DNA from: Owenia fusiformis
Taxonomy: Eukaryota
DNA: 64,000 bases
NCBI GenBank assembly: GCA_903813345.2
Contig: CAIIXF020000001.1
Span: 20,770,001-20,834,000 of the forward strand
Reading direction: 5' to 3'
Both the position numbers and the translations under genes were made by a program. A model generated the notes under the pieces. That model searched no databases. It worked only from the letters and a program-made list of their open reading frames with translations, and was not told where the DNA came from. Shown piece after piece: positions 4,953-52,006 of the stretch. Each line of letters opens with the position of its first letter. Position 1 is the first letter of the stretch.

Positions 4953-6350
4953 AACTAACTGATATGAAGCAAGCATAAATTATTAATTAAAGGCAGTTCT
5001 GCAAAATAATTCAGGAGTTTGAATCTAGTCAAAATTTATTTTTATCATCTGAACTTATTTTGTTTTGATTATTGGATATCCAGAAGGTTGTTTCAGTCAT
5101 CACTATGAATCTTGATCTCTAATAAATGAGACTTGGGAAGTCAAGTATGAGAATATCACTCATTTAGAGATTAGAGTTTGTCTTTGTTAATTAATCTTAG
5201 ATTGATCACTGATCAGTATAGACTAGAAGATTTCACGCCATGTCGCATATTGCCCGTAGTTTTACATTAGCAGCGGAACAAACATACTCATAGATCAAAG
5301 CAAATGTACTTATTTCAGAACTCAATTTCATCTGTTAATTTATTTTTTGTTCAGTCAATACCTTTGATCTTATTTTTCTGTTTAAGAAAGGTGGAGTAAG
5401 AGTTAGTATCCATTCTAATATGGACACAAACAGGTTAAACATTTAAGCCCATGTCTTGCTCCACCTCCCCCAGATTCCCTCTCTAACTAGGGACATAGAT
5501 ATCAAGTGAGGGGATGCGTTTACTGAGGTTTGATGCGAGATTACAAAAACTGACACTCTTGGTCAAGTTAATACACAAATTAGCAGTGTGTTATTTGCTT
5601 TTATTATACGACATTGTAAAAAGTCAAAAGTGGTTGAGTATTACTAATGGTTAATATGTAGCATGATATTAACAGTGGTTGCACTGGACAGGATAATAAA
5701 ACAAAAATGAAAATGAATTTAAAAAAGTGAAGGATCATTCTCGCCTTAGTGACTAGAGCCATGTTAATGGCCTCATTATGGGTAACTTTACGCTTGATTG
5801 AGATCAGTTTAAGTAAAGTTCAGCAGAGAAAGTTAGTAAATATCCATTGTTCTTTTTGTTAAACCAAAATAAGCTGACTTTATAGCTGCTTTATTTACCA
5901 CTAGGGGATTAGAGGATTTGTGCTGCAGAAGGATAACGGGCTAAAAAGTTACATTATTTATTGTATTATGTATTTAGTAACATTGAGTTTGTGCAGTCAG
6001 GCGAAGAGGTATATTTGCAAACTGAATAATAATTGTTACTTACTGGTTTCAGTGAAACTGTTGATCTCTAATACATTCTTAAGCATTCTTTTGTTTTCTT
6101 GGAGATATTTTCCTACTCACCTCTCCTTATCTTGTGCTAAAAGTCTGTAAGAATATGTAAAAATGTTCTTCAAGCCTGTTCTTGGAGTAAATATCATACT
6201 TACCTTAATGTATGCATGCTTGTTCTCACAAAATAAATAAAACATACATATTACTAACCTTTCCTGGCATATGGATGCTTGTTATCACAAAATTAGACAG
6301 CTGAAAACAAATAAGATTTAAAATAATTTTTTTGATAATTTCCATTTCAG

Positions 6351-27500: not shown

Positions 27501-30500
27501 TGTGACTGAGGCATTACATACAGCCTATAGGGTGTTGGGTTTTCTTACAATACAAGAGAAATTACAATAGTAATTTATATTCATAGATAATCATTTTATC
27601 ATTTTTTGTCATTTTACCTAGGGAATTTACAGATGATATCCTAATATTCCACACAAACACAATTGAAAGTTTCATTAAATTACAAATACATTATGGCATA
27701 ATTGAATTTATTTCTGTTGCTAGGCAACCTGTGTGTGGAAGTGATGGCCATAAATATGGAAATGAATGTCAGATGAGAGAGGAATCGTGTCGTCAGCAGA
27801 AGCGCATCACTCAAGTTGATGATGATGATTGTGACGACAGTAAGCTAAACTCTAAATACATCAGGGTTATTATCTGAGAGGTTTTGGATATAGGGTTTAT
27901 CCCAAGGGAGATATAGATGATTCCTGAGGTTATGAGATACATTTCAAATGTCTAATAAGAAATATTATAACATTAAATAGTAGAATTCCAAAATTCCTTG
28001 TACAGAGAAAATTCTATATTACTTAAATCTATTAACGCAAATGCGAGTAGGTAATTACCAGTTTCACCACCAGGTGGCTCGCTCGAGTCAGATAGCATGG
28101 TGGGTCAGATAGCATAGCATGGTGGAGAGAAAATACTCTATGTGCTATTTAAACATGCACAGTTCTTTTGATGGTGAATATCGCTTAAATCGATTATGCA
28201 AAAAGTTTTATTAGAAGCTTAATCTTGTTGCATATATTGTAGTATTTGATGAGTTCTGCGATGGCAATGACGCAGTGGTGGATGAGACAACAGGAGAACT
28301 GTTCGACTGCAGTACATCATCAAAATGCCCAGATGGAAGTTTCTGTCATAAAATCAAAATTAACTCAGAAGTAGTTGGCCGATGCTGCTTTGCAGGTAAA
28401 CAATTCTGTTTGTCTCACAATGTAGTTAATGTAGTTAACATTAGATATTCTTGTTAGACTCACTGCTTCCCTGAAACTATAATATATCAAGGCAGATTGA
28501 AGATTTGAAATAATCCTCTCAGTTTAGGTACCAATTTTAGTTTTACTAATAACTGGTATATATAAGTCTATTCTCCATTTTCAGCATAGATGGTCTAGCT
28601 TTTTCTTCTGTATTTCATTTTGCTAAGATCTGGAATCTTAACTCTTGATTCCCTAGAATGTTACCTCTTTAAACGTTAATACTGTACTTATTTATTGCAA
28701 ACAGATTGGAAGAGTAAGTTGTATAAAATCACAACTCACAACAACTGAATATTTATACCTAGTTCCCATATTTTATTGAATCACGTATATAAGACTGTTT
28801 GTTAACCCTATCACTGCCAAAGACACAACTTGCTTCATTTTGACACATTAACCCTTTTATCCCTAAATGAAGACAAACTTCTGCAAAGTAATGTTGCTGT
28901 ACCCCCAAAACCATATAAGGTGATATTCATGTATAAATAAAATTCCTTGCCTGGATTATTTTGTGTGGGATTGTCATACCTCCTTTGTTTTCAAAACCAT
29001 AGTCTCATTAATTCCCAATAGATATTTTCTTGGCTTCCAATTAACCTGCAGGTCAGTCACCATTGTAATTTAGTCCCTTTGGGAATACCCATTACTTTAC
29101 TCCCATATATCTAGCAGTACGGGGTTAAAAGGATTAATGATCACATGAATTTTGGTTTGACGTCACATTATTTTGTAGACACTCCTATTGTAAGTTGTAA
29201 GGATACAGAATTTGGCTGTTGTCCAGATGGAAGAACTTCGGCCCCTGGAGCTAGTGGTGCAGGTTGCCCCAGTAAGTGCCCCAGTGATGCATAGTGGCTG
29301 CTGCATTAGCTAGTTATGCAGCATTCTTATCCAGGGTTAAATGATGTTGTATACTGGTATACTCAGTTCACTCTGCAATTTTGCTATTTAGCATTGGTTT
29401 ATTCCACGTTAATTTGATAATACAACAGGCGCTTGGGGAAACATTTGATTGAGAAAATGAATGTGTACTTCAGATCCCTAGAGGTATTTTATAATCAAGG
29501 CACTTACATGTATTTTAATCATGACTTACATGTTGTACTATATACATGAATATTTAAATGACCATTTTCAATTAGAATGATTATTAATGGTATTATGACT
29601 CTATGTAATACTTTTTTATTGGTTGTACATTGAATTGAAGGTTTAGGTATAATGTATATAGCTGGCTAGAACGGAAAGGGTAAGGGTTTGGACCATAAAA
29701 TTCATCCATGCATGTTCGACCCTTAACCTATTTTATACAGCTGGTATCAGCATACACATCAAATCAACATAATTTGAAGCTGGTGTCAGTATACATTGTT
29801 GTATACCATTCAATCCTTACTAATAAATTCCCTTTTGGCTATGGTTGATCTTGGAATGCTCGTTTTCTTTAATAGTTTATTCCCAAATTTAGTTTGCATG
29901 AGACTCTAAGTAAGTGGTGGTAGAAACATGGTATGAACTAACATTCCAAAAAGGAGTTCAATTTCATGGAATTTTGGTTCATTAAATATTCAATAAGGCA
30001 ATATTATGCAATATAGGACCTCATCTACAGACTTAAAAAATTGTATCATATTATATTTTAGGTGTCTGTCAGTGTAATTTGCTAGGATCATACGGTGGAA
30101 CATGTGATCCACGTACACGGCAGTGTGTTTGTAAACCAGGAGTAGGGGGATTGAGGTGTGACCGCTGTGAGCCTGGGTTCTGGGGATTGCCAGACATTGC
30201 AAATGGCAAAAGTGGATGTACACGTAAGTTTTTTGAATTCTGTATTTTTTGTAAAACCGAACTGTGACAAATGAACCGGTTGAATCTGAGGAATTCAGTA
30301 TCCATTATACAAGTGATACCAACAAGAATTTAAAGAGAAGTTATCAGCCTTAAAAAAATTTTGCAATTTTGTTTGATGTGAAGTTTTAATCCTGAGATAA
30401 TTTACTAATGTACCAATAATTCTCTGATGTAGCCTTTGAATATGAATTATTAATTACTCAATGAGTAAGATTGTAATTGGAATCTAGGGTATCATGCAAT

Positions 30501-33500: not shown

Positions 33501-36500
33501 CAACACGATAAAGGTTAACATTTTCACTGAGTCTGTGTTTTCAGTCACCTGCAGAAAAATAAATATTTTTTCATAAGCATTTGATTTTTCCAGATAGTCA
33601 GATTCTATTTTCTCAGACATGGCTATAACAATATAACTGTCTAAACTTATATTTTCTAATTCAACTTTTAATCTAGAATTGTGTAACCACTTAAAGGCAA
33701 AGTTTGGTCTCAAATGATATAAACCAAAATCTGTCTCCAAATATTCTCTGGTGCTCTGATGTTCTTAACTTCTTCATCGGGTCATCAAAGATGTGTCCAT
33801 TTATGTAGTGTAATTTACTTTACTTTAATGTACTGTGGTGTCTTAGTTTTATTTTGTGCATTAATAATAATTAATAAATTATTAAATAGTATAAATTTTT
33901 ATATATTTCACATTTATTTGCTAAGAATACAGTTTTTTATTCATTCTTTGAACATTTTACATATTCTTTAAATGCCTCTAGAAGCTTGAAGTATGTTTGT
34001 ATAATTTGGATATTTTACAATTTAAAGTACCAAAAGATATTTGAATTTATTTGTCTATTTCTGCGTATGATTGATTTTATTTTTCATTCTTTCTACATAT
34101 TAGTTTCTTTTAACTTTTTATTTGATGAATCAACACAAATGGCAACATTTGAATCTTATCAGCATGTAAAAAGTACTTATGTCAATGTTGCAGTACTGTA
34201 CGTGTGAAACCCAGTGGTTATTTTAAAACTTATTTAGACACTGTACTGTATTCTTTCTTGTTTGTGTTTTACAGCATTGTCAAAATTTTCTAGTATAGTT
34301 ACATTATATTTTTCAAATAATAACATTTTTAATAAGGATTTAGAACAAAGTAGAAATCACAAACTGTCTCGTCTCTTGTTAACTGTCTCGTCTAAATTAT
34401 GTTCTAACAATTCTGTATTTATAGCTTTATACTAACAATTAATGTGGTGTTCACTAAATGTGCTGTTTACTAAATGTTCTGTTCACTAAATGTGCTGTTC
34501 ACTGACAGCTTCTCCTTCTGTGATTGAAACTCTTCAAATTGTGATTCTGTATTCTGTAAACGAGAAGAATATTCACAACTGTTTTATACCAAATATGGTA
34601 TGTGACATACATGTGTTTATAATTTCCTTATATGGGTATACTCTATTCACATGTACTATATATGGGTATAATGAGTATGTCATACACTACAATAACAAAG
34701 TGAATATCCGTTCTTGTTGGGTATGGGAATTTTTGGGGAAAATTTGATTCCGAGATATTTTCCCCACTGTAAATCAGCAATAATATGACCACTATAGTCT
34801 TATATAATCCTTATTTTGATATTTGTAGATAATGGTAAAATGCCCGCCAGCTCATGTAGAGACATCAGGTGTGAACATGGTGCGTCATGTCAAGTGATGA
34901 ATGGAGTAGCAGAGTGTGTTTGTCTCCCAACATGCCCTGCAACGAATGCTCCCCCAACGATGGTCTGTGGCACAGATGGACAGACCTATGGGTCAGAATG
35001 CCAGCTTAGATTGTTCGCATGTAGGCTACAGAAAAATATACAATTAGCTGGGAAAGGAGCATGTGGAATGAGTAAGTTTTATTCTTCATATTGAATTACG
35101 TTTTAAATGTTTTTTAATTCAAAATGGTTGCCTAAAACAGGAATTCGCAATAATTTAAATATCTCTTCAAAGTGTGGTTACTATTCTACATTAGATCACA
35201 AATTGTATCGTCTTCATGAGTTGTTCTTTTGATACTCCTTAAATGGTTACCCAAATGCTTAAATTGGTAGAAAATCTGATTTCTCATGAGGAGAGTAGAT
35301 GGTAAATATTATATTGTAACATATACAGATTTAAAAATATTTTTTTGTTGGGATTTTCTACTCTGTAGAGTTGCCATTTTATGGTCATTAATAATTCTTT
35401 CAATTTTTTTTCCAGATGGCCCCATGCTACCGACTGCCGCCCCCGACAACCGCAGAACTCGTAAAGTTACCCGGCATGTTGCAACCACACCTGATACGCC
35501 AAAGACGAAGCATATAGCCCTTGAAGATGAATGTTTATTCGACTCTGATTGCATGGCAAAAAACAGCAGATGTCTTTATAATCGCTGTAAATGCAAACCT
35601 GGATTTTTCCAGACAGATAATGGAAAAATGTGTTCTCGTGAGTAAACATTTGTTACAGATATTACATTTTTACATTTTGATAGAAGGATATTGGTGGTTT
35701 TTATCTTTTCATGTTGTACTTCATTGAGGATCTTCAGTGTTTTATGCACTTTTTGAATTTGTTATTTTGTACAGAATTGTCTTTCATGATAGACTAGGAT
35801 ATTACCACTATACAGTACCTCTTTTTCTGGGCACCTTGTAATATTTTGATATACATGTAGTAATTTTTATTTTTGTGTTTTCTTGAATATCATGCCTCAC
35901 TTTCATTTTCTACACGTAAACCACTTTTTTCATTTGTCTTTTTTCATTTGTCACAAATATTGTCTTACATAACATCTTGGGTAAACATTGCAGGGTCATC
36001 ATTTAAACGAAACATACGCTGAAAAATAATGAAATGATTAAGAAATTAATAGACTAAATATCAAATCTAGCGGAATCAAGAGAAATCGAGTGAAATAAAC
36101 ATGACCCTACAGATATTTACTCTCAGATGTATTTTTAGTTGTTACTTGAATGTTTTTTGGTTTATTTCTTCTGATGGCGCTTTAGCTGAGATGATTGAAG
36201 TAGATGATAATAATGCTGAGATAGACATTGACCTAGATGCTGGAAATCTTTTGGACAATGATGATCTGTATGAGGTTCAACCAGAAACCTCTCCTGAACC
36301 AGAACCCACACCTAAATCTGAATTAGACATGGAAAAAATAAATTTTAATAAGTTCAAAGATTTGAAGACTTTATATGAGGATCCATGCGCAAGCTCACCA
36401 TGTAAAAAAGGAGGCACCTGTATACCAGATGATAAACTTTTATCAGGGTTCAAGTGCAAGTGTACTAAAGGCAGACGGGGAGATCTATGTCAGAAACGTA

Positions 36501-39500
36501 AGTGAGATTACATGTAAGAATATACATCATTGTGAGAGGTTACTATGGTTACAGCCCAGGTAAATTGTCTCAGAGAATACAGCAATATTTGATGTTGTCC
36601 AAAAATGTAATTAACAATTTTTCAGATCAACTTCTTCCAAAAAATTCAGTTATTTTCAAATTCAAATCCACTTATAAAAACTGATATCTCAAGTAAAAAT
36701 GATTTTACTATCTTCCCTTACAATGAATAATTACATTTTTGGATGTGTATCAAACTATTCAAACAAATGGCCTGAAGTATTAAATCTCTCTTATTTAGAC
36801 ATGGTATTTTGAATCAACAACAATCAACAATTGGTCAATTAATCATTACATTAAGGTGGCTTTGTATAAAAAACCTCCTACCTCATACCCACCTACCCAC
36901 CTACGTGGGACATGATACAGTCATTGATGGGTTCAATTTTAAAGATTTTTAAATCTCAAAATAGCTATAATTATTAACATTTCTACAATTCCGGCTTTAT
37001 TTTATGACTACACGGATCACAGATCCATAAATAAAGGCATATGGGTGTATTGTAATGTGTAATGACCCAAGGGCGCCCCAGGGGAATAACTATCTAACGA
37101 CCGCGAGCATAGGTCCAACAAGCCAGATAAAGAAATTGAATGAAAGTGTGCTAAATTCGATGCCCCGAGTGGGAATTGAACCCAGCTGGGCTGTAGTAGC
37201 AACTTGCTATCAAGGGTCGTTACAAATGCATCCATAATTATTATAAACTAAGATATAATAAACTAAGATCTTTAAAATTGAACCCTTCAAAGACTGTATC
37301 ATGTCCAACGTACGTGGGTAGGTGGGTATGAGGTAGGAGGTTTTTTATACAAAGCCCATTAAGGTTGATTTTTAAGCCACGGATGTAGGACTAATGATAT
37401 GTTAATGCATGGAATTGCATTATAATGTCACTCACCATCTGTGATATGACACTGGGCACCATATAACATTATATCGATCGTATATACACATTACTAACTC
37501 CATCTCATTTGAGCGTGTTTTAAAGCTATAGATGGCAGCACAAGTATGCAAGCCACGCTGACTGTCACATACACGGCTCAGTTATCAAGCATACAGAATG
37601 AATATGCTCATTTTACAAGAACATCATATTCATTTAATAGATTGATGTAAAAGAAATATATTTTAACAGAAGATGTTATTGTAAGACCAGCTGTTACATA
37701 CATAGTGTAGTTTGGTCTGGGAGGGAATGGCTGTCCTACTTACAATTACATTTAGCCTATGCAGAGAATCAATCTGTGATTAATACTTAAATGATCAACG
37801 AAATGGAATCTCATGATTAACCTTCTGTTTTTTATCTTCTAATTTTAAAAAAAAGTTTCTTAGTTTCCTGTATAATGTTGTTTTTTAGATGTCATTTATG
37901 TTCTTGATGTTTCCTATAAATTATTCATTACTATTCTAATATATTCCATAATTTTTACATATAATTGAATAATAATTGTATTTTGTCCAGCATGATTTTT
38001 GATATAAAGTTCCCAGTAGATTTTATTATTTCAAATATGTTAGTAATGATATATGTTAAATATTTATATTATCGTTAATATCTTCATTCCTCCTGTACTT
38101 AATATCCCTCCCTGTTTTTGTCTTTGTAGGTAGCAAAAAACAACGTAAAAAATCTAAAAAAAATAAAAAAGATCGTATGTAGTCTCATCCTAAAAAATAT
38201 CGCTTCCTCTATGTATCATAATTTTCATTTTATTTTCCTTTATACGCTTCTAACACACACCTCCAAAACCTTTATTTCATGTTCAATTTCACATATTTTC
38301 TTTTACTGAATCTCATTTTATTAACCTTATAAGCTGTATTATTATTTTATTTAATTGTGCCACTTTGTCAAAACTTATATCATGGAATTATTCAATTTTT
38401 TATCAGATTGATTGTTTCTGAGCTGTGAAAACTTGTAAAATATTTTGTAAATATTATGTACAAAAAAATCTTTTAATGTTGTAAGGTTTTCATGTTTATA
38501 TCAGAGACATTCATTTTCATCAAAACTTCAGAAAATCTCACAATTTTATATATTATCTCCGCCAGTAGTAAAATATGTAATAAAATGTCATCTTTTTATC
38601 ATATGACATTTTACATTCATAGCATAATACAAATTTAAAAAAAAGTACATTTGCAGTGAAAAAGTTGCATCATTGCTTGTTTTGGCGGGGTGTTGTTATC
38701 CCAACTTATTGTATGGACATTTACACCTTTATCATTATTAAAGGCATTAGAATGCTGATCGTATGAAGCTTATTACTGAGATACTTGAATCCTTTGTCCA
38801 AACTGCATGTTTGAAGCTATCCATTTTATCATATGGACTGGTCAGTTATGCTTGATAATCCCCGCTTTGTATTATATTTGATAACAAGTACATCAAATCA
38901 GTATTACCCATAAGAAACTACAATATTAAATAACAAAAAATGAACCGCAAAATAATCAATTTTAATCATTCTATATCTACATTATCTTCATAATTTTAGT
39001 TTTCTATTAGTTCCTCAACTTTTGTAGACTTAATATTCTCTTAGAAACCTCATATTTATGTACTTCCTAGTTATTTATTTTACCTTCTAGTTCTTTATCT
39101 CGTAGAATTGTATGCTTGTATAGTGCATAAGTTGTTTGTTCTTTATGTTGCTTTAATGGTTAAGTTCTGCTATTGCTTGCTATGTAGTCGCATTTGGTGA
39201 TGGGAACTCCGCTTCATCAACTTCATCCCATATCATCACTGACACTGACAACCCTCCACTCGATAACGACTTCCCGGAAGACCTTGATGATGTCACAGTG
39301 GACAACGATAAAAATGACGTCATCAAAAGTGAGCAAAGAGATGCGCCATTTGGAGGAATGCTGGGAAAAGGTTTGTCTTGGATTTATCATGTGTGAGCAG
39401 CACTGGCTTCATTTTCACTTCCTCCAATTTGCCGTCCTTTCAGCTATCAACACCGCTCTCTGTTCAAACAATAATTACTATAGATAAACAATAAAGCATA

Positions 39501-42500: not shown

Positions 42501-45500
42501 CTTATGTGGCCAGCCTCTAGAGATATCATCACTGGATCTGAAATAAGTGAGATTTCCACTGAAAACCTTTATTTTGACACTTATTCTTAGCCTGATAAGG
42601 AACAAACATGAGAAATTAGCTACTTGTAAAGATGTAAAATACAAAATAGATATTATGTAAATTTTCTGCCTAAATGATCTAAAATGTTAAGGATTAAAGC
42701 AATGTGAAGTCACAATAAAAGCATAGATGTTTACTAAGTTAGTACAAATTAAACAATGGGTTACTATTGTTGTCCATACAATATAGTTATCCTGAGATTG
42801 TGTGTTTCAGGTGAGTGTGGTGGGGACAATCCCTGTGCCAGCATGCCCTGCATGAACATGGGCTCCTGCATGAGACTCGATAAACGCAACTTCAAGTGCG
42901 TCTGCCCCAAAGGCTTTGAAGGTAAATACTGTCTACCCTCAATGATAATAGCACCAATAGCACCAGGATTTATAAGGTTTGAAATTTCACATGAGTATGG
43001 CAATTTATAAATGCTTTTAAGTAGGTTTAGTAGATTTTTCTCACTAGTGTTACTTGTAGTTGTCCAATCTACAATATAATATGTGTGTGTTGCTTAAAAC
43101 CTGTGTTTTGACCAGTATATTGTTTCAGTTTGAAAAGTAATTCTATAATTCAACTTCCCTGGAATATATTGGATGAAATGTACTTACTGTATTTTATATC
43201 GCTGTTAGGTTCTGTGTGTGAGAGAGGAGAAGACAAGTGCCAATCAATGCCATGTCATCACGGTGCTACATGTCGCAGTGTACCAAATGGAGACTTCATG
43301 TGTGAATGTCCTAAGGGCTGGAAGGGAACATTCTGTGAAACTGGTACAATTTACCATTTTTGTATCGGAGTTAGGCTCATCTTTTTTTATTTATCTAGTC
43401 ACATCTCATTATGTCTACACCTCATGTCTCCTCATTGCTGCTAATGTAATATTTTTGTGCAGTTAAATGATAATTCTCTTTAATAAAACTGAAATACATG
43501 TATAGCTCTCTATGTCTGTCGTGTTGAGTATCTCAATGTTTGTTGTGTTTTGGAGGAAAGGCCTATTTCACCACATTTGTTTAAAATTTTAATTTGAATG
43601 TAGACACATACCTTGGTATAAAAATAATAAGTTATGTTGATTCCAGAGACAAAAGGCGGATTAGAGGAGGTCATGGTCCCAGAATTTAATGGTCGCTCCT
43701 ACTTGGTCCAACCACTTAAAGGAAAATTTGCCAGACACATAGACCTGGAAGTATGGTTCTTGGCCAAAACGTCAAATGGTAAGGCAACATTTTGTGATTG
43801 ATATAATTTTTTATACTCCAAATATCTTTAACTTGATTTTGATACATGTACAATTTTTATACATTTAGCCCCAAAATCCATCTAAGTTTGAATCCTTGTA
43901 TTAGGAGGAATGCATAGGAATCATATTTTAAATTTGTTATTTTATTTAGGAATGTTGCTATATGTTGGACAGCAACCAGATGGAAAAGGTGACTTCCTCT
44001 CTCTAAATTTGGTCAATGGACACCTACAGTTCCGGTTTGACCTTGGGAGTGGACATGCAAACATCACGTAAGTCTGAGACATAAAGCAAACACATAAATC
44101 TGACATATACCTTCATGACTCCATTGAGCATTGGATATATCTAACAATTCCAGTCCGTGATATCTTGGATTGTGAGATTTTTCTGACCATGAAGTCAGCT
44201 GTAATGTATCTTTTACATCCATCCATTATATCTAACCAAAATATACAATAATGATTATGTTAATAGGACTCTGATAATAAAAGGGGCAATTAACCCATCA
44301 TCATACTTTTTCCATGACTTTGATTTCATATCCACCATAAAGGTAATCTTTAGTTAGGAAGGTTAGGCTTAGAAATGCTCCATGTATTATATGATATATT
44401 CAAATTATAGGACAACAAGTGAACATGACTGTATAGTACTATGATTTTACCTATTAGTTTCATGTTAGTGATTATATCTTAAAATTGAACTGTCTTTAGG
44501 AGCTCTAGTCGTATCCCACTAAATGTGTGGCATCGTGTACAACTGGACCGAAACAACAGGAAGGGGAGTATTTCTATCGATGGAGGTCCAAAAGCAGTTG
44601 GATCTGCTGGGGTAAGTTCACCTCTTTCACTGTTTTGCTCCTCAAATGGGCCAAGCAAAATATCAATGTTTTTGTGAGACTAGTTATTCTAGGAGAATAT
44701 ATAAAGCCAGATTTTTCTCCAGAAGAACATTATTGAGTGATATCCCACATCGATTCGAATTATATACGGTTTAAGGAACAGGAGGACGTAGATCTTACTG
44801 AATTGCACAAAAAACATTGAAATTATGACCTGGCCTGATCATGTTGTATAGTAATCGCTCATCTTTGCTTTGTGCTACAACTGTGGTTTGCTTAAATGGA
44901 CAGGGGTCAATAAAATGTAACTAATTTTGATTTTATGATAAAATAACATATTTTGCTGGAACTCAGTGATTTGATCAGACACCTTCCACATACAATAACA
45001 ATGTTCACCTTAATGATGTTGAAGTAGAAAATACTATTATAGGAATCATCAATGAATTATGGTATCTGTATAACTTGCTTCATACTGCTTTACTGTCAAC
45101 TCCTAATAAACTTGACAAAAACCACATCATGATCTTCCAACAGAATATATGACTTAATGACATTGGTTCCGATCATGAGATTATGTGATCAACAATAAGT
45201 GGCCAAGCTTAGTATTGTTGAATATTGTGTGATTCAAATTTTTTATACCTCATAAAATGCTGCATGTACTTCTGCAATATTAAATGTCACACTCTCAAAG
45301 TTGTTGGTAATATCATTAATAACAAATCTTGAGACCATTGCCATTTAATGATTAAACACTCTTTTCAAAGTTTTGTCTTATAAATGAGCGCATGAAATAA
45401 ATATTTCTTGTTGTCTTTAATTGGTACATATTCAGAAGGTATAGTATAGTGTAACATCAAAGTCAAAGCTTTTCCTTCTATTTCATTTCTAGGACCAAGT

Positions 45501-48500
45501 GGTATGTGCATTAGAATTTTATTTGGCTCAAGAAAATAACTAACTGAGCAAAAATAAGTGGAACCAAGAACAGGGGTAGTATCCAAGCGACAAGAGGCCC
45601 TCTTGCAATACTTATATTGTGTTGTCAAATACTGGTATAATTGGGATATAGCACATGGTACTGTGATGTAAAAATAGGCCATGATTTCTTGGATACTACT
45701 TGTAAAAAATCTCCTGTGAATAATAATAAGAAGAATGTTGTTTGTACAAAATCCATGCACATATACATAATGCACAAATCAAAAGTTATTTAATGAACAG
45801 AGGCCATTTAGTTTTTTCATCAATTGCAGTAATGATCCAATCGAATTTCTTCTTTGTGCATGACATAGCCCTCCTTTGTAACAGTAAAACTTGTATATTG
45901 GAATACTTATCCTAAGTTCAGACCCCACACCTTCTTTTGGGCCTATTCTAACTCTCATATTGTCAGGACTTCATAAATAAACATCATTTTCCTAGTCTGA
46001 ATTGTGACGAAACAAAAAGAATGAGCTGGCTGTTCAGGTGATTAAAATGTTTTGTTTTTTTTCTTTTCGCTGATCAATATAATCCTACATCATTTTTCCT
46101 ACAGTAAAATAAATATCATGTCTTGCATGCTCCATCTAATACATTTCAAGTTGCTGAGTTGATCAATGGTTCTTCACTGGTGCAAGTCACCAGGGGTATT
46201 CACATTAGACAAGTTTTACTGTTTTATCGCTATGTATTACTCAAGGGTATGATCTTGTTCACCCCCCTGTGTCCGCTTGATTTATCTTATTGTACATCTT
46301 CGTAAAACATGTTACTTTGAATGTTTAGTAATTGGTATTAGTACTGTGTACTAGAGTTGGAGATCTTCGTTCGATAAATATGCCCAAATATGGGCTTGCA
46401 AAGCTCTAAGCGTTTTGTCTGTTCTCATAAACTCGGGTGACAGCATTGTAAATGGCATTTAGCACTTCAAAGCATTTTAACATACATCTCTACAGTCTCC
46501 CTAATAAATATGGTATAAAAATGATACATATGTATAGAAAGAATAATTATTTAAGTCACTCAGTTATATGTATTTTGTATTTCTATTTTGTATTTCTTGT
46601 ACAAATTTTGTTAATTCACTGATTTATATAAATTGCAGAAAGAGCATTGAAAACATTTAAATAAACTATCGTTCTAAAATAGTTACTTCTATGTATTTTT
46701 AAATCTCAACAAGTACATGTAGCACTATGGTTATTATATTTTGAGTGCATGACAAATGTAGTATATAATCTATTTATATGATTAATAACATATGGCACAC
46801 CCTGTATATCTTGATACACCTTATATAATAAATGTAACTAAATCACAGATTTTACAAATATTTTGAATGCTTAGTTTGTTGCATTTTTGATATAATATTG
46901 CTAAATTCCAATTACTGGGCCCAGTTGTTTGAATGTCAAATTAATAGTGGTTTTGATCAACTGGCCCCAGTACTGATACAATGTACAGGGTTTCATCAAC
47001 AGTAGTTTTTGAGCAGAGATACACAACATTTTTGAATGATCTAATTTAATAAAGTGTTAAGGTACTTACTTTTAAATGAACTGAATCCCACACATTGCTT
47101 CAAAATTGTTAAAGTCTCAAAGTAAAACATCATATTTTACTTTACTTGTGATTACAATAATAACCAGAACAACGGCAACGCCAAAGCGTAGCGAATCCCA
47201 TCGAACAGAAATGGCTGGCATTTTTACAAATAAAGCGCAAATATCATAAAACAACACACCAGAAAGGCCACCATTTTCAAAATGGTTACTCACTAGTCAA
47301 GTTGTCATCAGAAGAAATAATATGCTTTTAAGTAGCCACCTCTAAAATTTTTTGAAAAATCGCACACGTACTTGTTAAATAACACACGTAAAAATGGTGG
47401 CCATTTTTCAAAATGGCCGACTACTCCCCAAAGTTTTATTAGACAATGTGCCATGCTTATAGTATTCACATACCAAATATGAACAAAATCGCTCTACTAC
47501 TTTTCGAGTTATAGTAAAATACGTTTACATGGCGGTCATTTTTCAAAATTGTTTTCAAAATGGCCGCCTTCTACCAAAAGTGTCATAGGACAGTGTGCCA
47601 TGCTTATAGTATTCACATACCAAATATGAACAAAATCGCTCCACTACTTTTCGAGTTATAGTAAAATACATCATTAAAATGGCGGCCATTTTTCAAAATT
47701 GTTTTCAAAATGGCCGCCTTCTACCAAAAGTGTCATAGGACAGAGTGCCATGCTTATAGTATTCACATACCAAATATGAACAAAATCGCTCCACTACTTT
47801 TCGAGTTATAGTAAAATACGTTAAAATGGCGGCCATTTTTCAAAATGGCCACCTTCTACCAAAAGTGTCTTTAGACAGTGTGCAATGCTTATAGTATTCA
47901 CACACCAAATATAAACAAAATCGCTCCACTATTTTTAGAGTTACAGCAAAAATCGTAAAATGACAAGTAAAGGCCGCCATTTTTCAAGATGGCTGCCATG
48001 TGCTTTTTAATATCTACATTTGTAGTATTATTAATGTCCTTTATAATATTTTTTACATTTAAAACATATTGCTATTACAGTTTTACATATTGCACCTAAA
48101 TTACTGTAAAATCGTCACTAAAATGGCCGCCATTTTGAAATGAGCGGCCATTTTGAAAATTGGCTTTCGAGCAGAACTTCTACCTCCATAGGGTATATGT
48201 GTACGAAATATGAACAAAATCGGGCCAACGGTATTTGAGTTATTGCCCGGACGGACGGACGGACAGACGGACGGACGGACAGACGGACGTACGTACGGAC
48301 GGACGGACGGACGGAGGCGTTCCCTATATCCCTCCGAACTTCGTTCGATGGGATAATGAATGTGAATGTGAAAGTATTGAATAGCATAACATTGTAGAGT
48401 GTTATTGTATCTGTAGGGCAATCTGAAAGACTTGAACTTGGGACCTGACCTATACATTGGAGGCTTTAAGAGCAAGAATCAACTCAGTCCAGACTCAGGG

Positions 48501-51500
48501 GTGACAACAGGATTCAACGGGGCCATACAGAGGGTAAGTACAGGCTCATGCATAGCCATAGTAAAACATGGTAAATGGATGATATAAATTAATGCATGTA
48601 TAACCATATTTGAGGTAGCTGTGTTCATTGTGTCAGTTTGTGTATTTTCTGAAGATTTTTCAGTGTCTTATAAGTCACCTGATCTTTAAAGTCCTCGCTC
48701 TTGCTATACATCTACTATCATTCAAAGGAGTGACTAATCTATAGCTCTGGTTTTATAACATATTGTTAGCTCATTCATGTCGTCACTGTGTTTCACATCA
48801 GCTCTACTCATCATAAATTTTGTGTAATGGATGGGTAGGATTAAGCCTTTCTCTTGACTATAAACTGTGAAAACCATTATGAACGCCTTGCTCATTTAGA
48901 AAAATTCATTTTCAAAAAATCTGTTTCATTAACAAGAGTAGATGTGTGGTCAAATAGATTATATGCAGAATTTAGTGTGAAACATGAAAGGCCCCTCTGT
49001 TAGCTCCCTAACCATAGCATACATGTATGTACTTGTTCACCTCTAGGTGTATGTGAATGGACGTCAGATTGATGACCTTGTGAAGGGGGCTATAGAGAAG
49101 GAGTTGATCACTCCCTATGTGGGTCCCCCTTGTATGGCCTCTCCCTGTCTCAATGGAGGCGTATGTGTCCCTATAATGAATGAAGCCAAATGTAAATGCC
49201 CAATGAAATTCACAGGGGACAGATGTGAGAAATGTAAGTTCATTCACATTTTACAAAAGACTTCAAAACATTGTACTTATTTAATGCTTATAATCTTAAA
49301 TCCTGAAGCAACAGTAGGTACATTTGTCGGTCTGTTTTCTAATCATTCACAGATTGTGACATTTTGTTAAAGGAATATTCCTTGCCAGACCCTTTCTCTC
49401 TTGATATGGTAGCTATAATCATATATATAGTTTCCATATTTAGCAAAACATGGGAAAATGTTTTAATATGGTCAATATTGATCATTTAAAAATCTTGTGC
49501 TTATTTCCAGTGAGCTGCCATCTTTTAAGATTTCTTGCAGGAAGTGATGTCATCAACTCTCAACTTCTATAACCTTGCCCATAACAGTATAGGAAAGTAG
49601 CACAAATTCACTTCTAGACAAGTGATCATTACTTTCTGTGCAAAAATAGTTCCAGGGCTTGTCAACTTAGAATAAAAGAATAGATTTTCAGAAGGATTAA
49701 ATAAGATGCAAAGTTGAAAAAGAATATTTAGCTGGTTTTGTAATTCTTAATAGCTCCTCACCTAATGCAATATGCAAAGTTGAGAGTCGATGACATCACT
49801 TCCTGTGTGAAATTTTAAAAGATGGCAGCTTACTGGAATTGAGCAAAAAAGTGATCAAATTTGACCATATCAAAACATTTTTGCGTGTTTGGCTAAACAT
49901 GGCAAGCATATATATGGTTATAGCTACCATATGAGGAGAGAGATGGTTTGGCAAGGAATATTCCTTTAATACATTACTAAATCATATCTCTTGATATGGA
50001 ACTGTAATATGATATCGAAACTGCATTCTGATACTCATAGCATCTTTCTGTTTCACCTGAAACATGATCTCAGGGCTGAGAAGATTTGAGATGTCATGGT
50101 TTATCATGATGTCGAAACTGTAATATAGAGAGAAGATAGCACAGTACAATAATTGTATTTTTGGTGATTGTTATTTCAGCCACTGACTCTGTTGACACTG
50201 ACCAACCTGTAGCATTTGATGGAAAGACCCAGCTTATGTACCCAAATATGGTGACAGAGAGGTAGGCATTTCACATCATTCATATTTTTCTATTGTCAGG
50301 CAGTAATATTTTTTTTGTTTTTGTCTCCACTTTAGTTTTATGCTTCTTGGTTTAAAATCTAGACCCTGGTAGTTTCGAGCAAGCTTTGCAAATGATAAGG
50401 AAACCAATTTGAATTTTACTTCCTCAAAATTGTGTGTTGCCAGATAAAACATTTAACGTGAAATATATAAGACATTCAAATGTTCGAAGATGCTTCTTGA
50501 TGTGACTACCAGGACATAATACATTTTTGAGTATATTGAGTGTTTACTTAATAAGGTGCAATGTCAATATCTGGGTATCCCACTGTATGCCATAGACCTG
50601 GGATGAATATACTAAACTATGCTAATCCCTCCATAGGCATCTTTCATGTGCAAAATATATATGTATATATAATTTCAGAGCACGAAGTCAGAAGGAAAAT
50701 AAATTCGAAGTGGTATTTAAGACTGAGAAGGACAATGGGCTGATCCTGATGCAGAACAAGGGTGACAATGTGAGGGGAGACTATGTAGCTATAGCCCTAG
50801 CAAGTGGTAAAGTTCAAGTCAGCTACAACCTTGGCAAGAACTCTGAGAAAGATCTACATGTTATCAAGAACCCAACTAAAGTGAATGATGAAAAATGGCA
50901 CACATTGACCTTCACAAGGTGAGGATACGTTAATGATAAATAATTGAGACAGAAAACAAGAGTGGAAAAATACTTTAGAGAATGCATTCCATTTGTTTAA
51001 GAATGACGGTGAGTTATTATCCCCTTTGCTTGGTGTTAGTGTCACAAGCACAGAAAGTCAGCATGATGCTCTTGTGTTATTTCTATTATCCAATAGTCAA
51101 CACTGTCTACATTCCTACTATAGTAATTACCTGTCATTTTGAAAGAGAAATGTCAATAGTTTTGTTGAATACCATGCTAATGATGGATTGCAATGTTCTC
51201 CCAATGATCTTTACTCCACTTGCTGCAAAATTTTCAGGAACATATTCTGACCAAGAAATGTTTTCTATCCAAAGTTTTCATTTCCAAATTCCCAATCCAT
51301 TTTAACAGGGGTAGCACTGGGTTGGTTCAAATAGGTGATTACTTACTCTGTTGTGTTGAGATCTAAGTGCCCAGTTGAAGTATTAAAGATTGTTTTGAAT
51401 GAAGAATGATTATTTGTGTCTCTAGGGAAAAGCGTAAGGGCATCCTGGTGATTGATGGTGGCACACCTGTGGAAGATGAATCCCCCAAGGGTTCAACATC

Positions 51501-52006
51501 TCTTGATTCAGATGGAGACCTCTGGATTGGTAAGTTGACTCATAATATAATGAAGGCCTTCATAAACAAACACATGTATTTGTTGCACAATGTCTAACTT
51601 CATTTCTTAGAATAAAGCATTAGCATGTATAGTATTGGGTGTCATTCTATGTTTGGAACCTAATAATAGACAATCATAAAGTGAAAACTTGTCAAAACTT
51701 ATTGTAGTTTCATGTTATTTTATGCAAGCTATTGCGTTTTCTTGTTTTGAAACACTGTCCATTTTCTTTTCACTTTTTTTAGGAGGTAATCCCAACCTCC
51801 CCGAGGGTCTACCCAGAGCATACACACGAGGCTTCAAAGGCTGCATCAAAGAGGTTCAAATTGACGGTGTTCAATTACACCTTGTTGACCACAGGGAAAA
51901 TCATACCTCATTGAAATTCTGTGAGGCAAAGGACTCCAAGAGACGGAGAAACACAGTAAACTCGAGGAGAAGAAGACCAGGATTACGAAGGCATAAGCTG
52001 TATTAG
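6351..52006 (+). CDS. AGRN: Agrin (5'-partial, multi-exon; 36 traced exons, about 1950 aa in window)
   Basis: Domain order FS/Kazal x8, laminin-EGF x2, FS9, spacer, EGF, LG1, EGF x2, LG2, EGF, LG3 is diagnostic of agrin. All traced exons have AG/GT boundaries with compatible phases; stop TAG at 52004-52006. Confidence 0.95.
6700..6845. mobile_element. Tc1/mariner-like MITE remnant
   Basis: ends ...tgggacaccctg|TA; a related end is at about 59750-59763. Confidence 0.4.
6926..7119. mobile_element. MITE with 5-bp TSD AATGC
   Basis: perfect TIR CATGGGCGTAGCG / CGCTACGCCCATG. Confidence 0.75.
9415..9651 (+). CDS. AGRN: agrin exon, FS/Kazal 2
   Basis: ccag|...G|gtatgt; 237 nt; [14 protein letters not shown]...[16 protein letters not shown]. 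Confidence 0.92.
12744..13265. mobile_element. foldback MITE with CACTG termini, ~200-bp imperfect arms and 5-bp TSD ATTGT
   Basis: CACTGTTCCACAACTAGTTACTTTGA / TCAAAGTAACTAGTTGTGGAACAGTG. Confidence 0.8.
14255..14984 (+). repeat. 49-bp minisatellite, 15 copies, overlapping an agrin splice acceptor
   Basis: unit accaacaacatgtgttacagATCCATGTAAAGACCATAAATGTAACATA; exact 49-bp period 14272...14958. Confidence 0.95.
14959..15174 (+). CDS. AGRN: agrin exon, FS/Kazal 3
   Basis: ttacag|...GAAG|gtgagt; 216 nt; [14 protein letters not shown]...[14 protein letters not shown]; its acceptor is the last unit of a 49-bp array. Confidence 0.9.
15935..16110. repeat. ~38-bp tandem repeat (~4 copies)
   Basis: acaagttaccatggttattccagttaccattataattc. 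Confidence 0.8.
17689..17904 (+). CDS. AGRN: agrin exon, FS/Kazal 4
   Basis: aacag|...TGTG|gtaagt; 216 nt; [14 protein letters not shown]...[14 protein letters not shown]. Confidence 0.92.
18935..19042 (+). CDS. AGRN: candidate alternative agrin exon, highly basic 36-aa insert
   Basis: ctataag|...AAAG|gtataa; 108 nt, phase 1-1, no stop; [38 protein letters not shown]-richer than the flanking intron. Confidence 0.5.
20340..20449 (+). CDS. AGRN: agrin exon, FS/Kazal 5 N-half
   Basis: ttacag|...CCA|gtaagt; [17 protein letters not shown]...CPRDFRP. Confidence 0.9.
20615..20784 (+). mobile_element. MITE (CAGGCCCGTAGCCAGG family) with 5-bp TSD TTGTA
   Basis: TIR and internal similarity to 23840-24038 in the opposite orientation. 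Confidence 0.75.
21000..21102 (+). CDS. AGRN: agrin exon, FS/Kazal 5 C-half
   Basis: tgtag|...A|gtaagt; [15 protein letters not shown]...RGRC. Confidence 0.9.
21880..22258. repeat. 30-bp minisatellite (~12 copies)
   Basis: tcactagcgatgtcaaaagatacatcacaa variants. Confidence 0.93.
22782..23005. mobile_element. MITE with long imperfect TIRs
   Basis: ATAGACCTTTCCA...TGGAAAGGTCTAT plus internal inverted ggctagattgatgatgtc/gacatcatcaatctagcc. Confidence 0.65.
23840..24038 (-). mobile_element. MITE (CAGGCCCGTAGCCAGG family) with 5-bp TSD TCCTT
   Basis: TIR CAGGCACGTAGCCAGG / CCTGGCTACGGGCCTG. Confidence 0.78.
24365..24456 (+). CDS. AGRN: agrin exon, FS/Kazal 6 N-half
   Basis: ttcag|...AGT|gtaagt; [13 protein letters not shown]...CVCPQSCVS. 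Confidence 0.9.
24738..24852 (+). CDS. AGRN: agrin exon, FS/Kazal 6 C-half
   Basis: gttag|...G|gtaagt; [19 protein letters not shown]...KGSC. Confidence 0.9.
24889..25037 (+). mobile_element. ~150-bp MITE (Harbinger-like), copy 1
   Basis: gcctcagtcacattt...aaatgtgact; near-identical core at 27359-27512. Confidence 0.6.
25277..25489 (+). CDS. AGRN: agrin exon, FS/Kazal 7 plus start of Ser-Gly cluster
   Basis: tttcag|...CAG|gtaagg; 213 nt; ends ...CNEVSGS. Confidence 0.92.
26623..26634 (+). CDS. AGRN: candidate 12-nt agrin microexon (DALP)
   Basis: long pyrimidine tract about 26564-26594, catgtag|ATGCCTTACCAG|gtaaac; phase 1-1, frame-preserving. Confidence 0.5.
26877..27040 (-). mobile_element. 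decayed copy of the same MITE family
   Basis: cccgtagccagg...ctggctatgggtctg with shared internal motifs. Confidence 0.6.
27157..27271 (+). CDS. AGRN: agrin exon, FS/Kazal 8 N-half
   Basis: attaag|GTTCAG (alternative in-frame acceptor at 27163)...AG|gtaaat; [18 protein letters not shown]. Confidence 0.88.
27359..27512 (+). mobile_element. ~150-bp MITE, copy 2
   Basis: TIR GCCTCAGTCA / TGACTGAGGC. Confidence 0.65.
27724..27839 (+). CDS. AGRN: agrin exon, FS/Kazal 8 C-half
   Basis: gctag|...A|gtaagc; [17 protein letters not shown]. Confidence 0.9.
28243..28395 (+). CDS. AGRN: agrin exon, lustrin/WR1-type Cys-rich module
   Basis: tgtag|...CAG|gtaaac; 153 nt; [32 protein letters not shown]...GRCCF. 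Confidence 0.85.
28806..29124. mobile_element. piggyBac-like MITE
   Basis: TTAA|CCC...actgc // gcagta..GGG|TTAA. Confidence 0.5.
29179..29271 (+). CDS. AGRN: agrin exon, Cys linker before the laminin-EGFs
   Basis: tgtag|...A|gtaagt; 93 nt; [26 protein letters not shown]. Confidence 0.9.
30062..30223 (+). CDS. AGRN: agrin exon, laminin-EGF 1
   Basis: tttag|...C|gtaagt; [15 protein letters not shown]...[19 protein letters not shown]. Confidence 0.93.
30851..30994 (+). CDS. AGRN: agrin exon, laminin-EGF 2
   Basis: aacag|...C|gtaagt; [23 protein letters not shown]. Confidence 0.93.
31385..31850. repeat. 30-bp minisatellite (~15 copies, alternating 60-bp higher-order pattern)
   Basis: tcattggtgcaatatggcacccccacccaa / ttattggtgcaatatatcacccccatccaa. 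Confidence 0.9.
32050..32311. repeat. two short ~27-bp tandem repeats
   Basis: gtactcacaaat x4; ttttcccagagagtattgcaatgtaaa x3. Confidence 0.8.
33199..33258 (+). CDS. AGRN: candidate 60-nt alternative agrin exon
   Basis: TACTAAC branch point 33165-33171, pyrimidine tract, ctag|...AAG|gtttgg; phase 1-1; [20 protein letters not shown]. Confidence 0.55.
34829..35071 (+). CDS. AGRN: agrin exon, FS/Kazal 9
   Basis: tgtag|...A|gtaagt; 243 nt; [13 protein letters not shown]...[15 protein letters not shown]. Confidence 0.92.
35416..35637 (+). CDS. AGRN: agrin exon, Thr/basic linker plus EB/EGF-like module
   Basis: tccag|...C|gtgagt; 222 nt; RRTRKVTRH...[25 protein letters not shown]. Confidence 0.85.
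36186..36497 (+). CDS. AGRN: agrin exon, acidic/PE spacer plus EGF
   Basis: tttag|...C|gtaagt; 312 nt; [14 protein letters not shown]...GFKCKC. Confidence 0.85.
36855..37358. mobile_element. foldback MITE with ~95-bp TIRs flanked by TTAA
   Basis: ggctttgtataaaaaacctcctacctcatacccacc... mirrored at about 37265-37356. Confidence 0.8.
38130..38174 (+). CDS. AGRN: 45-nt Lys/Arg-rich agrin exon (probably cassette)
   Basis: strong pyrimidine tract, tgtag|...GATC|gtatgt; phase 1-1; [15 protein letters not shown]. Confidence 0.72.
39188..39370 (+). CDS. AGRN: agrin exon, acidic/Ser-Thr spacer (probably cassette)
   Basis: tgtag|...AAG|gtttgt; 183 nt open, phase 1-1; [34 protein letters not shown]. 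Confidence 0.75.
40070..40417 (+). CDS. AGRN: agrin exon, PE/T-rich spacer plus EGF
   Basis: tttcag|...G|gtgagc; 348 nt; [13 protein letters not shown]...GFLCLC. Confidence 0.85.
41254..41355 (+). CDS. AGRN: agrin exon, Ser/Thr/Pro-rich (probably cassette)
   Basis: ttctag|...TAG|gtagca; 102 nt, phase 1-1; [24 protein letters not shown]. Confidence 0.65.
   Translation, partial: RLRWLLWPHSPQQTLLLYQLHLQPQWKSLIIQP
41737..41938 (+). CDS. AGRN: agrin exon, LG1 part 1
   Basis: ccag|...CG|gtatgt; [12 protein letters not shown]...LLLYNGQ...GDFISI. Confidence 0.93.
42088..42300 (+). CDS. AGRN: agrin exon, LG1 part 2
   Basis: ccag|...GA|gtaagt; YDLGSG...WHRV...[10 protein letters not shown]. Confidence 0.93.
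42410..42546 (+). CDS. AGRN: agrin exon, LG1 part 3
   Basis: tatag|...A|gtgaga; GLVGCVQSL. Confidence 0.88.
42811..42921 (+). CDS. AGRN: agrin exon, EGF
   Basis: tttcag|...G|gtaaat; 111 nt; [14 protein letters not shown]...[11 protein letters not shown]. Confidence 0.9.
43209..43343 (+). CDS. AGRN: agrin exon, EGF
   Basis: gttag|...G|gtacaa; 135 nt; [13 protein letters not shown]...[13 protein letters not shown]. Confidence 0.9.
43647..43778 (+). CDS. AGRN: agrin exon, LG2 part 1
   Basis: ccag|...G|gtaagg; [10 protein letters not shown]...LEVWFLA. Confidence 0.9.
43950..44067 (+). CDS. AGRN: agrin exon, LG2 part 2
   Basis: tttag|...AC|gtaagt; GMLLYVGQ...GKGDFLSL...FRFDLGSG. Confidence 0.92.
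44500..44611 (+). CDS. AGRN: agrin exon, LG2 part 3
   Basis: tttag|...GGG|gtaagt; [24 protein letters not shown]...GSAG; phase-0 end. Confidence 0.92.
45493..45501 (+). CDS. AGRN: candidate 9-nt agrin microexon (DQV) in LG2
   Basis: gcttttccttctatttcatttctag|GACCAAGTG|gtatgt; phase 0-0. Confidence 0.62.
47162..48357 (-). mobile_element. HINE/DINE-1/pearl-like element with 4 core repeats (~135-150 bp), (GGAC)n microsatellite and terminal palindrome
   Basis: core units at about 47448, 47595, 47745 and 47880; (GGAC)n about 48248-48315; palindrome tatccc..gaacttcgttc..gggata. Confidence 0.75.
48417..48533 (+). CDS. AGRN: agrin exon, LG2 part 4
   Basis: ctgtag|...AGG|gtaagt; [16 protein letters not shown]...GFNGAIQR. 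Confidence 0.92.
49047..49233 (+). CDS. AGRN: agrin exon, end of LG2 plus EGF
   Basis: ctag|...T|gtaagt; [13 protein letters not shown]...[14 protein letters not shown]. Confidence 0.92.
49371..49965. mobile_element. Kolobok-like MITE with TTAA TSD and long imperfect arms
   Basis: TTAA|AGGAATATTCCTTGCCA ... TGGCAAGGAATATTCCT|TTAA. Confidence 0.8.
50180..50261 (+). CDS. AGRN: agrin exon, LG3 part 1
   Basis: ttcag|...AG|gtaggc; [18 protein letters not shown]. Confidence 0.9.
50679..50918 (+). CDS. AGRN: agrin exon, LG3 part 2
   Basis: ttcag|...AG|gtgagg; [30 protein letters not shown]. Confidence 0.92.
51426..51529 (+). CDS. AGRN: agrin exon, LG3 part 3
   Basis: tctag|...G|gtaagt; [16 protein letters not shown]. 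Confidence 0.92.
51783..52006 (+). CDS. AGRN: agrin last coding exon, LG3 end plus basic tail
   Basis: ttttag|[22 protein letters not shown]...LKFC followed by an Arg-rich tail and TAG. Confidence 0.92.

Follow-up and report, generated by a model that had tools for sequence, protein, structure and literature searches.

The y and z exons of agrin are textbook microexons, acting as switches on a synaptic organiser's activity. Neurexin, which is another gene, provides an analogy of principle and not of homology, as short alternative inserts of its LNS/LG domains (e.g. SS2 and SS4) also occupy rim loops of the same fold and modulate ligand binding; the neurexin inserts sit in other loops than the agrin y insert. 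In vertebrate agrin, the y (or A) insert KSRK lies in the J-K loop beside a putative Ca2+ site, has a heparin-binding role and reduces alpha-dystroglycan binding (PMC6450144), and the human y exon is repressed by PTBP1 (PMC10139058). The A/y and B/z sites were concluded to be vertebrate-specific in a paper on Caenorhabditis elegans agrin (PMC1939731). Z exons were called chordate-specific, with nematode and sea urchin alone tested, in a paper whose available parts do not mention the y site (PMC12445529). Our literature search retrieved no paper that describes splicing at the y site in non-vertebrates, the amphioxus insert described below included, although the supplementary figures S2/S3 of PMC12445529 may bear on this point. 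Here we describe a 9-nt element, GACCAAGTG, encoding Asp-Gln-Val (DQV), in the agrin gene of the early-branching annelid Owenia fusiformis, which we are inclined to regard as a cassette microexon at the y site. It was examined within a stretch of 64,000 nt (the window; contig CAIIXF020000001.1, positions 20,770,001 to 20,834,000 of the forward strand, assembly GCA_903813345.2), and all positions given below are those of the window.

Splice signals of the candidate microexon

The local sequence around the candidate reads ttttccttctatttcatttctag, followed by GACCAAGTG and then by gtatgtgc. Its 9 nt are a multiple of three and contain no stop codon, the host intron is of phase 0, and on inclusion DQV would sit between G1775 and G1776 of the protein. 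The features for which the element had been singled out in the initial annotation, namely a strong pyrimidine tract with an AG, the DQV codons at 45493-45501, a gtatgt donor and a preserved frame, are all present (Table 1).

Splice sites were scored with log-odds position-weight matrices trained on the 34 donors and 35 acceptors of this gene, each real site being scored leave-one-out. The candidate acceptor (11.48) outscores 33 of the 35 real acceptors of the gene, and its pyrimidine content at positions -23 to -4 (18/20) is level with that of the best real site. The candidate donor, with a score of 8.74, is on a par with the median real donor (8.7, 34 sites). Taken together, the two sites reach 20.2 bits, which is more than the combined score of 32 of the 34 annotated exons. 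The closest AG 5′ of the candidate acceptor is 22 nt away, and the AG-exclusion zones of the real exons range from 12 to 185.

The rarity of such a combination was estimated by scanning all AG..GT pairs 3-30 nt apart for their combined acceptor and donor score. The candidate was the sole pair to reach 20.2 when 39.2 kb of introns of the gene, the reverse strand (64 kb) and a further 18.1 kb from outside the gene were covered; in the local null sequence, about 121 kb in all, no rival pair scored at least as much. Within the y-site intron, 68 pairs were in frame and stop-free, and the second best of them scored 9.2, versus 20.2 for the candidate. Under a third-order Markov null trained on introns (6 Mb), 7 pairs attained the candidate's score, which for any frame corresponds to 0.0044 per 3.8 kb, and the requirement for frame and absence of stops cuts this expectation to about one third. 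When the threshold was lowered to a sum of at least 12, the Markov null gave 2782 pairs per 6 Mb and the real null, over about 104 kb, 50 pairs, of which 37 came from the reverse strand and 13 from the other introns; since the two agree at looser thresholds, the Markov null is not badly optimistic. The equivalent scan of the z-site intron (50262-50678) revealed nothing above 11.6, and its best in-frame pair, 3 nt long, is no credible microexon, which indicates that the scan is not permissive. The splice signals of the candidate are far beyond chance.

Elsewhere in the gene, the second-best in-frame and stop-free candidate is a 45-nt stretch at 38130-38174, in intron 18 (36498-39187), with a combined score of 18.3. 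It would encode a very basic product of 15 residues; its sequence is A-rich and of low complexity, and it could be due to chance.

Position of the host intron and structure of LG2

Codon-exact mapping of the O. fusiformis agrin CAH1773592.1 (2092 aa) showed that the plus strand of the window holds the part of the gene that encodes residues 153-2092, in 35 exons. Kazal-type open reading frames (ORFs) were detected at 6305, 9279, 14886, 17661, 20321, 25195, 27587 and 34798, and laminin-EGF frames at 30037 and 30808, while the 3′ block has the order EGF-LG1-EGF-EGF-LG2-EGF-LG3 according to the open frames and to Pfam EGF and Laminin_G matches. Kazal/follistatin repeats, laminin-EGF, an S/T region and then EGF-LG-EGF-EGF-LG-EGF-LG are the domain order expected of an agrin orthologue, and the LG2 translation is 100% identical to CAH1773592.1 over 185 residues. 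By this domain order and identity the gene is identified as agrin, as had been proposed, and the 3.8-kb phase-0 intron that was said to divide LG2 was recovered as well, after ..AVGSAG. With 3805 nt, it is the third longest among the 34 introns of the gene.

In a 29-species alignment, the Owenia junction aligns gap-free with the insert-free vertebrate forms at the GESP-[KSRK]-[LV]PHT..LNL column. Two of the 15 lizard isoforms examined (Lacerta X5 and X6) carry the KSRK insert at this very column, the other 13 being without it, and the agrin chain of PDB 8S9P also carries its y-site insert there. Judged by the gap-free alignment with the lizard isoforms, together with PDB 8S9P, the Owenia intron 44612-48416 coincides exactly with the vertebrate y site, in agreement with the y/A position that the initial annotation had assigned to it.

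We also examined where this junction falls in the folded domain. In a confident AlphaFold2 model of Owenia LG2 (pLDDT 95.2), the junction G120|G121 lies in the loop 119-130, at the start of a 12-residue surface loop that joins two beta-strands (114-118 and 131-134). The best solved fold match of the model is mouse agrin G2 (3PVE; TM 0.89/0.94, 41% identity), and its fold matches also include LNS domains of neurexin, both insert-bearing and insert-free.

The candidate and the vertebrate agrin Y exon (12 nt, KSRK) thus share the gene family, the LG2 domain and the alignment column before the LNL..LY[IV]GG strand, and both are microexon-sized with lengths divisible by 3. The spacing between the y and z sites is alike too, as three constitutive exons lie between them in Owenia (48417-48533, 49047-49233 and 50180-50261) and likewise in human (PMC10139058). 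On the other hand, the candidate has 9 nt instead of 12 and the two inserts show no similarity. What it encodes is DQV and not a basic heparin-binding tetrapeptide; since the chemistry of DQV is acidic/neutral, and not basic like that of KSRK, it would create no heparin site.

Table 1 Features of the y-site region of Owenia agrin (window positions)
Feature	Position	Strand	Details
Constitutive LG2 exon 5′ of the y-site intron	44500..44611	+	Residues 1739-1775; ends GGA TCT GCT GGG, donor GGG|gtaagt
Phase-0 intron matching the vertebrate agrin y/A splice site in position	44612..48416	+	3805 nt
Polypyrimidine tract and tag acceptor of the candidate	45470..45492	+	Matrix score 11.48
Candidate 9-nt cassette microexon	45493..45501	+	GACCAAGTG, Asp-Gln-Val; in frame, stop-free
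Candidate donor gtatgt	45502..45507	+	GTG|gtatgt; matrix score 8.74
ACTAAC	45539..45544	+	Starts 38 nt past the last base of the candidate
Multi-copy, highly transcribed repeat in the y-site intron	47162..48356	.	About 1.2 kb; reads end sharply at 47161/47162 and 48356/48357
Constitutive LG2 exon 3′ of the y-site intron	48417..48533	+	Residues 1776-1814; tctgtag then GGC AAT CTG

Y-site inserts in other agrins

Inserts of 4-9 residues at the y column were found in 5 of the 29 aligned agrins, namely those of Lacerta (KSRK), a Branchiostoma hybrid (9 residues), Ciona (4), Aplysia (5) and Larinioides (5). The y loop of LG2 thus tolerates inserts.

The amphioxus set comprises Branchiostoma belcheri, B. 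lanceolatum, B. floridae and hybrids (P0034 and P0159-P0172), all of them predictions of an annotation pipeline. Among the isoforms listed there (15 of 84 cluster members), 9 of 14 NCBI-predicted isoforms carry a y-column insert, with the 9-residue sequences GGPSNNVPE, GGQSNNVPE and GGPSNNVLE. These isoforms resemble the Owenia candidate in the LG2 column concerned, in an insert that only some isoforms carry and in being non-vertebrate. They are unlike it in that the insert has 9 residues rather than 3 and contains N-N-V-P, whereas DQV is without Asn, and in that the amphioxus isoforms are pipeline-predicted. Since the predicted isoforms differ at the same column, they indicate that y-site splicing predates vertebrates. 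It had been suggested earlier that y-site splicing is either ancient or convergent; an age greater than that of vertebrates agrees with the amphioxus isoforms, but the protostome isoform sets examined, which show no variation there, do not extend it further.

The N-N-V-P of the amphioxus y insert resembles the N-E-I-P motif of z8. The z site of amphioxus varies independently, by an ESNSIRE-type insert, and all four y/z combinations occur among the isoforms listed.

Two single gene models of protostomes have 5 extra residues at the y column, LDIGG in Aplysia californica (P0021) and AFFFQ in Larinioides sclopetarius (P0213). Such residues are missing in their close relatives Plakobranchus and 8 other spider models, respectively. 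Perhaps these extra residues represent microexons, or they could be annotation artefacts.

Regulatory motifs and microexon class

The initial annotation had also listed an ACTAAC about 40 nt downstream of the candidate and four TGCATG sites in the intron, and had taken them as regulatory signals. The motifs are where they were said to be, with ACTAAC found at 38 nt (Table 1) and TGCATG at 45261, 45857, 46124 and 46746; the TGCATG sites nearest to the candidate lie 232 nt upstream of it and 356 nt downstream. A regulatory role of the two motifs is not supported, as the densities of both in the y-site intron are at background. TGCATG occurs at 1.05/kb in this intron versus 0.50/kb in the other introns, with 4 sites found and about 1.9 expected, and ACTAAC at 0.26/kb versus 0.31/kb, with one lone site near the candidate. 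GCATG, ACTAAY, TGC and YCAY likewise showed densities equal or close to those in the other introns. With TGCATG at background density, the nearby and typically downstream (U)GCAUG enrichment of Rbfox-regulated exons was not found at the y-site intron. QKI/SF1-responsive exons would have ACUAAY enriched in their neighbourhood, a point on which the one ACTAAC 38 nt downstream is too little to speak either way.

Microexons that depend on SRRM proteins and their eMIC domain are characterised by an AG-exclusion zone that is long and by a UGC in the vicinity of the 3′ splice site (PMC8797185). Like the neural microexons of this class, the candidate is at most 27 nt long, has a very long pyrimidine tract and falls in a loop at the surface of a matrix protein of the synapse. 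Unlike them, it is without a nearby UGC and has a short AG-exclusion zone, judged by the features given in the available parts of PMC8797185. Because UGC and a long AG-exclusion zone are both missing, we did not class the candidate as an SRRM-type neural microexon.

RNA, protein and DNA evidence

Three raw RNA runs with the same species label (X13-X15), sampled at 6-12%, were mapped to 43500-52000. The mean depth over agrin exons was 0-2.1x per 284-nt bin, and no agrin junction, constitutive ones included, was found among the junctions listed (at least 3 reads), which are dominated by those of the repeat at 46908-48611. As no constitutive agrin junction is listed either, the mapping is without power on the inclusion of the candidate.

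Proteins were searched in two ways. Searches with the LG2 domains of Lingula and Owenia returned one Owenia protein only, which is without the insert. A search of proteins of 99-2000 aa with the exon 48417-48584 gave no match, the Owenia agrin (2092 aa) lying outside this range. For related genomic DNA, a metagenome scan with exon D gave 508 pattern matches, none of which was confirmed by tblastn.

Another run, X1, behaves as DNA, with about 10x depth across introns and many variants. Over 45241-45886 its depth is about 10, with 18 differences and 7 gaps, and over repeats it reaches tens of thousands. Given this difference in depth, the surroundings of the candidate are single-copy.

Interpretation of the candidate

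On balance, we favour, with some reserve, the reading that GACCAAGTG is a genuine cassette microexon of Owenia agrin which is included rarely or in a tissue-specific manner. Its host intron is the orthologue of the vertebrate y/A-site intron, and DQV would be added at the start of an LG2 surface loop, with an inclusion that is low or limited to some cell types. The strong signals would meet the need of a 9-nt exon, which is expected to require unusually strong ones. From its place in a rim loop near the putative Ca2+ site, we infer that DQV, once spliced in, may tune the binding of LG2 to ligands of the glycan/dystroglycan type. If the microexon is used, regulated splicing of the y loop would date to the protostome-deuterostome ancestor, or it would be a striking convergence, given that Owenia is an early-branching annelid; it would also offer a tractable spiralian system for the function of this loop outside the neuromuscular junction.

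Several findings weigh against this reading. The sole Owenia agrin protein found (CAH1773592.1, a one-member cluster) skips the insert; annotation pipelines, however, commonly overlook 9-nt exons, so the skipping is weak evidence. Y inserts are absent throughout the protostome isoform sets examined, namely from 7/7 in Lingula, 2/2 in Lineus, 10/10 in Centruroides, 6/6 in Gryllus and 2/2 in Oratosquilla, and DQV is dissimilar to KSRK as well as to the amphioxus, Ciona and Aplysia inserts. TGCATG and ACTAAC are no denser in the y-site intron than the background, and eMIC features are missing at the candidate, with no TGC (UGC) within 60 nt upstream of its acceptor and an AG-exclusion zone of just 22 nt. 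In addition, the splice matrices were built on just 34-35 sites. As none of the reads, transcripts and proteins examined contains the insert and the annotated protein skips it, the earlier claim that an annelid regulates the y loop by a microexon is not borne out. Of that earlier reading as a whole, the agrin identity, the y-site position and the signals beyond chance stand, while the regulation by motifs and the regulated loop in an annelid are not supported.

The main alternative is a chance pseudo-exon, in which an AT-rich intron by accident has a T-rich tract and an AG followed, 9 nt on, by a good GT, the pair being never, or almost never, spliced. We consider this a substantial possibility, although not the leading one. 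It accounts for the skipping in the annotated protein, for the RNA support that was not obtained over agrin exons at 0-2.1x, for the lack of an enhancer context (UGC missing, and TGCATG, ACTAAC and YCAY at background density) and for the constancy of the y site in every protostome isoform set examined. Moreover, about 1-2 such pairs per Mb are expected genome-wide, which makes hundreds by chance. However, only about 0.004 are expected in the y-site intron, which was chosen beforehand by homology, and one third of these with frame and no stop; the local null sequence of about 121 kb has no rival pair, and the sites are stronger than those of 32 of the 34 real exons. Since no protostome isoform varies at the y site, we started from a modest prior, and since such a signal pair is rare in one pre-specified intron, we assigned it a likelihood ratio of some tens; combined with a small penalty for the absence from the annotation, these lead us to prefer a real exon while leaving considerable room for an unused decoy. 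If it turns out to be unused, the candidate would exemplify how strong a decoy splice-site pair can get.

Two further alternatives use the acceptor differently, and both are improbable. If the acceptor at 45493 were used and the donor skipped, an alternative terminal or poison exon would truncate agrin in LG2, which we think has little chance of being the case. The frame from the acceptor does stop after 16 codons, and run X14 has a sense-orientation depth of 0.5 in 45488-45771 and of 0.12 in 45772-46055. Nevertheless, this amounts to about one read or pair, the level of unspliced pre-mRNA at such expression; the donor equals the median real donor, and a beta-sandwich domain cut short from within would not fold. 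Least probable of all is a recursive-splicing (ratchet) site, by which the intron would be removed in two rounds with nothing of the candidate remaining in the mRNA. A strong acceptor followed by a close donor, in the third longest of 34 introns, would suit such a site, but 3.8 kb is short for recursive splicing. It was rejected, as the junction after the first step, GCTGGG|GACCAA, regenerates no GT, the candidate beginning with GA.

A broader proposal is that the y loop was a hotspot of alternative splicing already in the bilaterian ancestor, the annelid, amphioxus, tunicate and vertebrate microexons all lying in the same phase-0 intron with their peptides freely replaced. This we regard as speculative and rather unlikely. 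If it is true, then together with the z-site inserts of brachiopod and scorpion described below, the two-site (y, z) splicing of agrin would be much older than the chordate neuromuscular junction.

The z site in Owenia and other protostomes

In Owenia, a phase-2 intron (50262-50678) was identified at the vertebrate z position, which in the lizard reads ..HNAVTKS|EKALQSNHFE... In the constitutive exon before this intron, N-M-V agrees with the conserved N-x-I/V motif (PMC12445529).

Inserts at the z position were seen in the isoforms of two other protostome groups. In the brachiopod Lingula anatina (P0173 and P0185-P0190), an insert of 12 residues distinguishes AVRN-PLKNKTLDKTAI-QRSQ from AVRK-QRSQ, and in two scorpion species of Centruroides (P0176, P0192, P0194 and P0197) the insert is GEMSEESTETG, with 11 residues. 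Both the Lingula and the scorpion inserts are without the N-x-I/V motif.

Repeats in the neighbouring introns

The repeat in the y-site intron (Table 1) makes up one third of the intron length and is separate from the candidate. It contains 3.8 tandem units of 150 nt (47405-47951) and a (CGGA)17 tract (48248-48315). Its RNA depth is 100-640x, versus at most about 2x for agrin exons, and most of its reads are in the opposite orientation to those of agrin. The flanks of loose-ended reads disagree with one another, which indicates that the repeat has been inserted many times across the genome.

A second high-copy and transcribed repeat lies at 49180-50110, in the intron that separates the EGF exon from the first exon of LG3. 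Its word depth in run X1 is 19,000-48,000, its reads occur in both orientations, and its boundaries are near 50024 and 50103.

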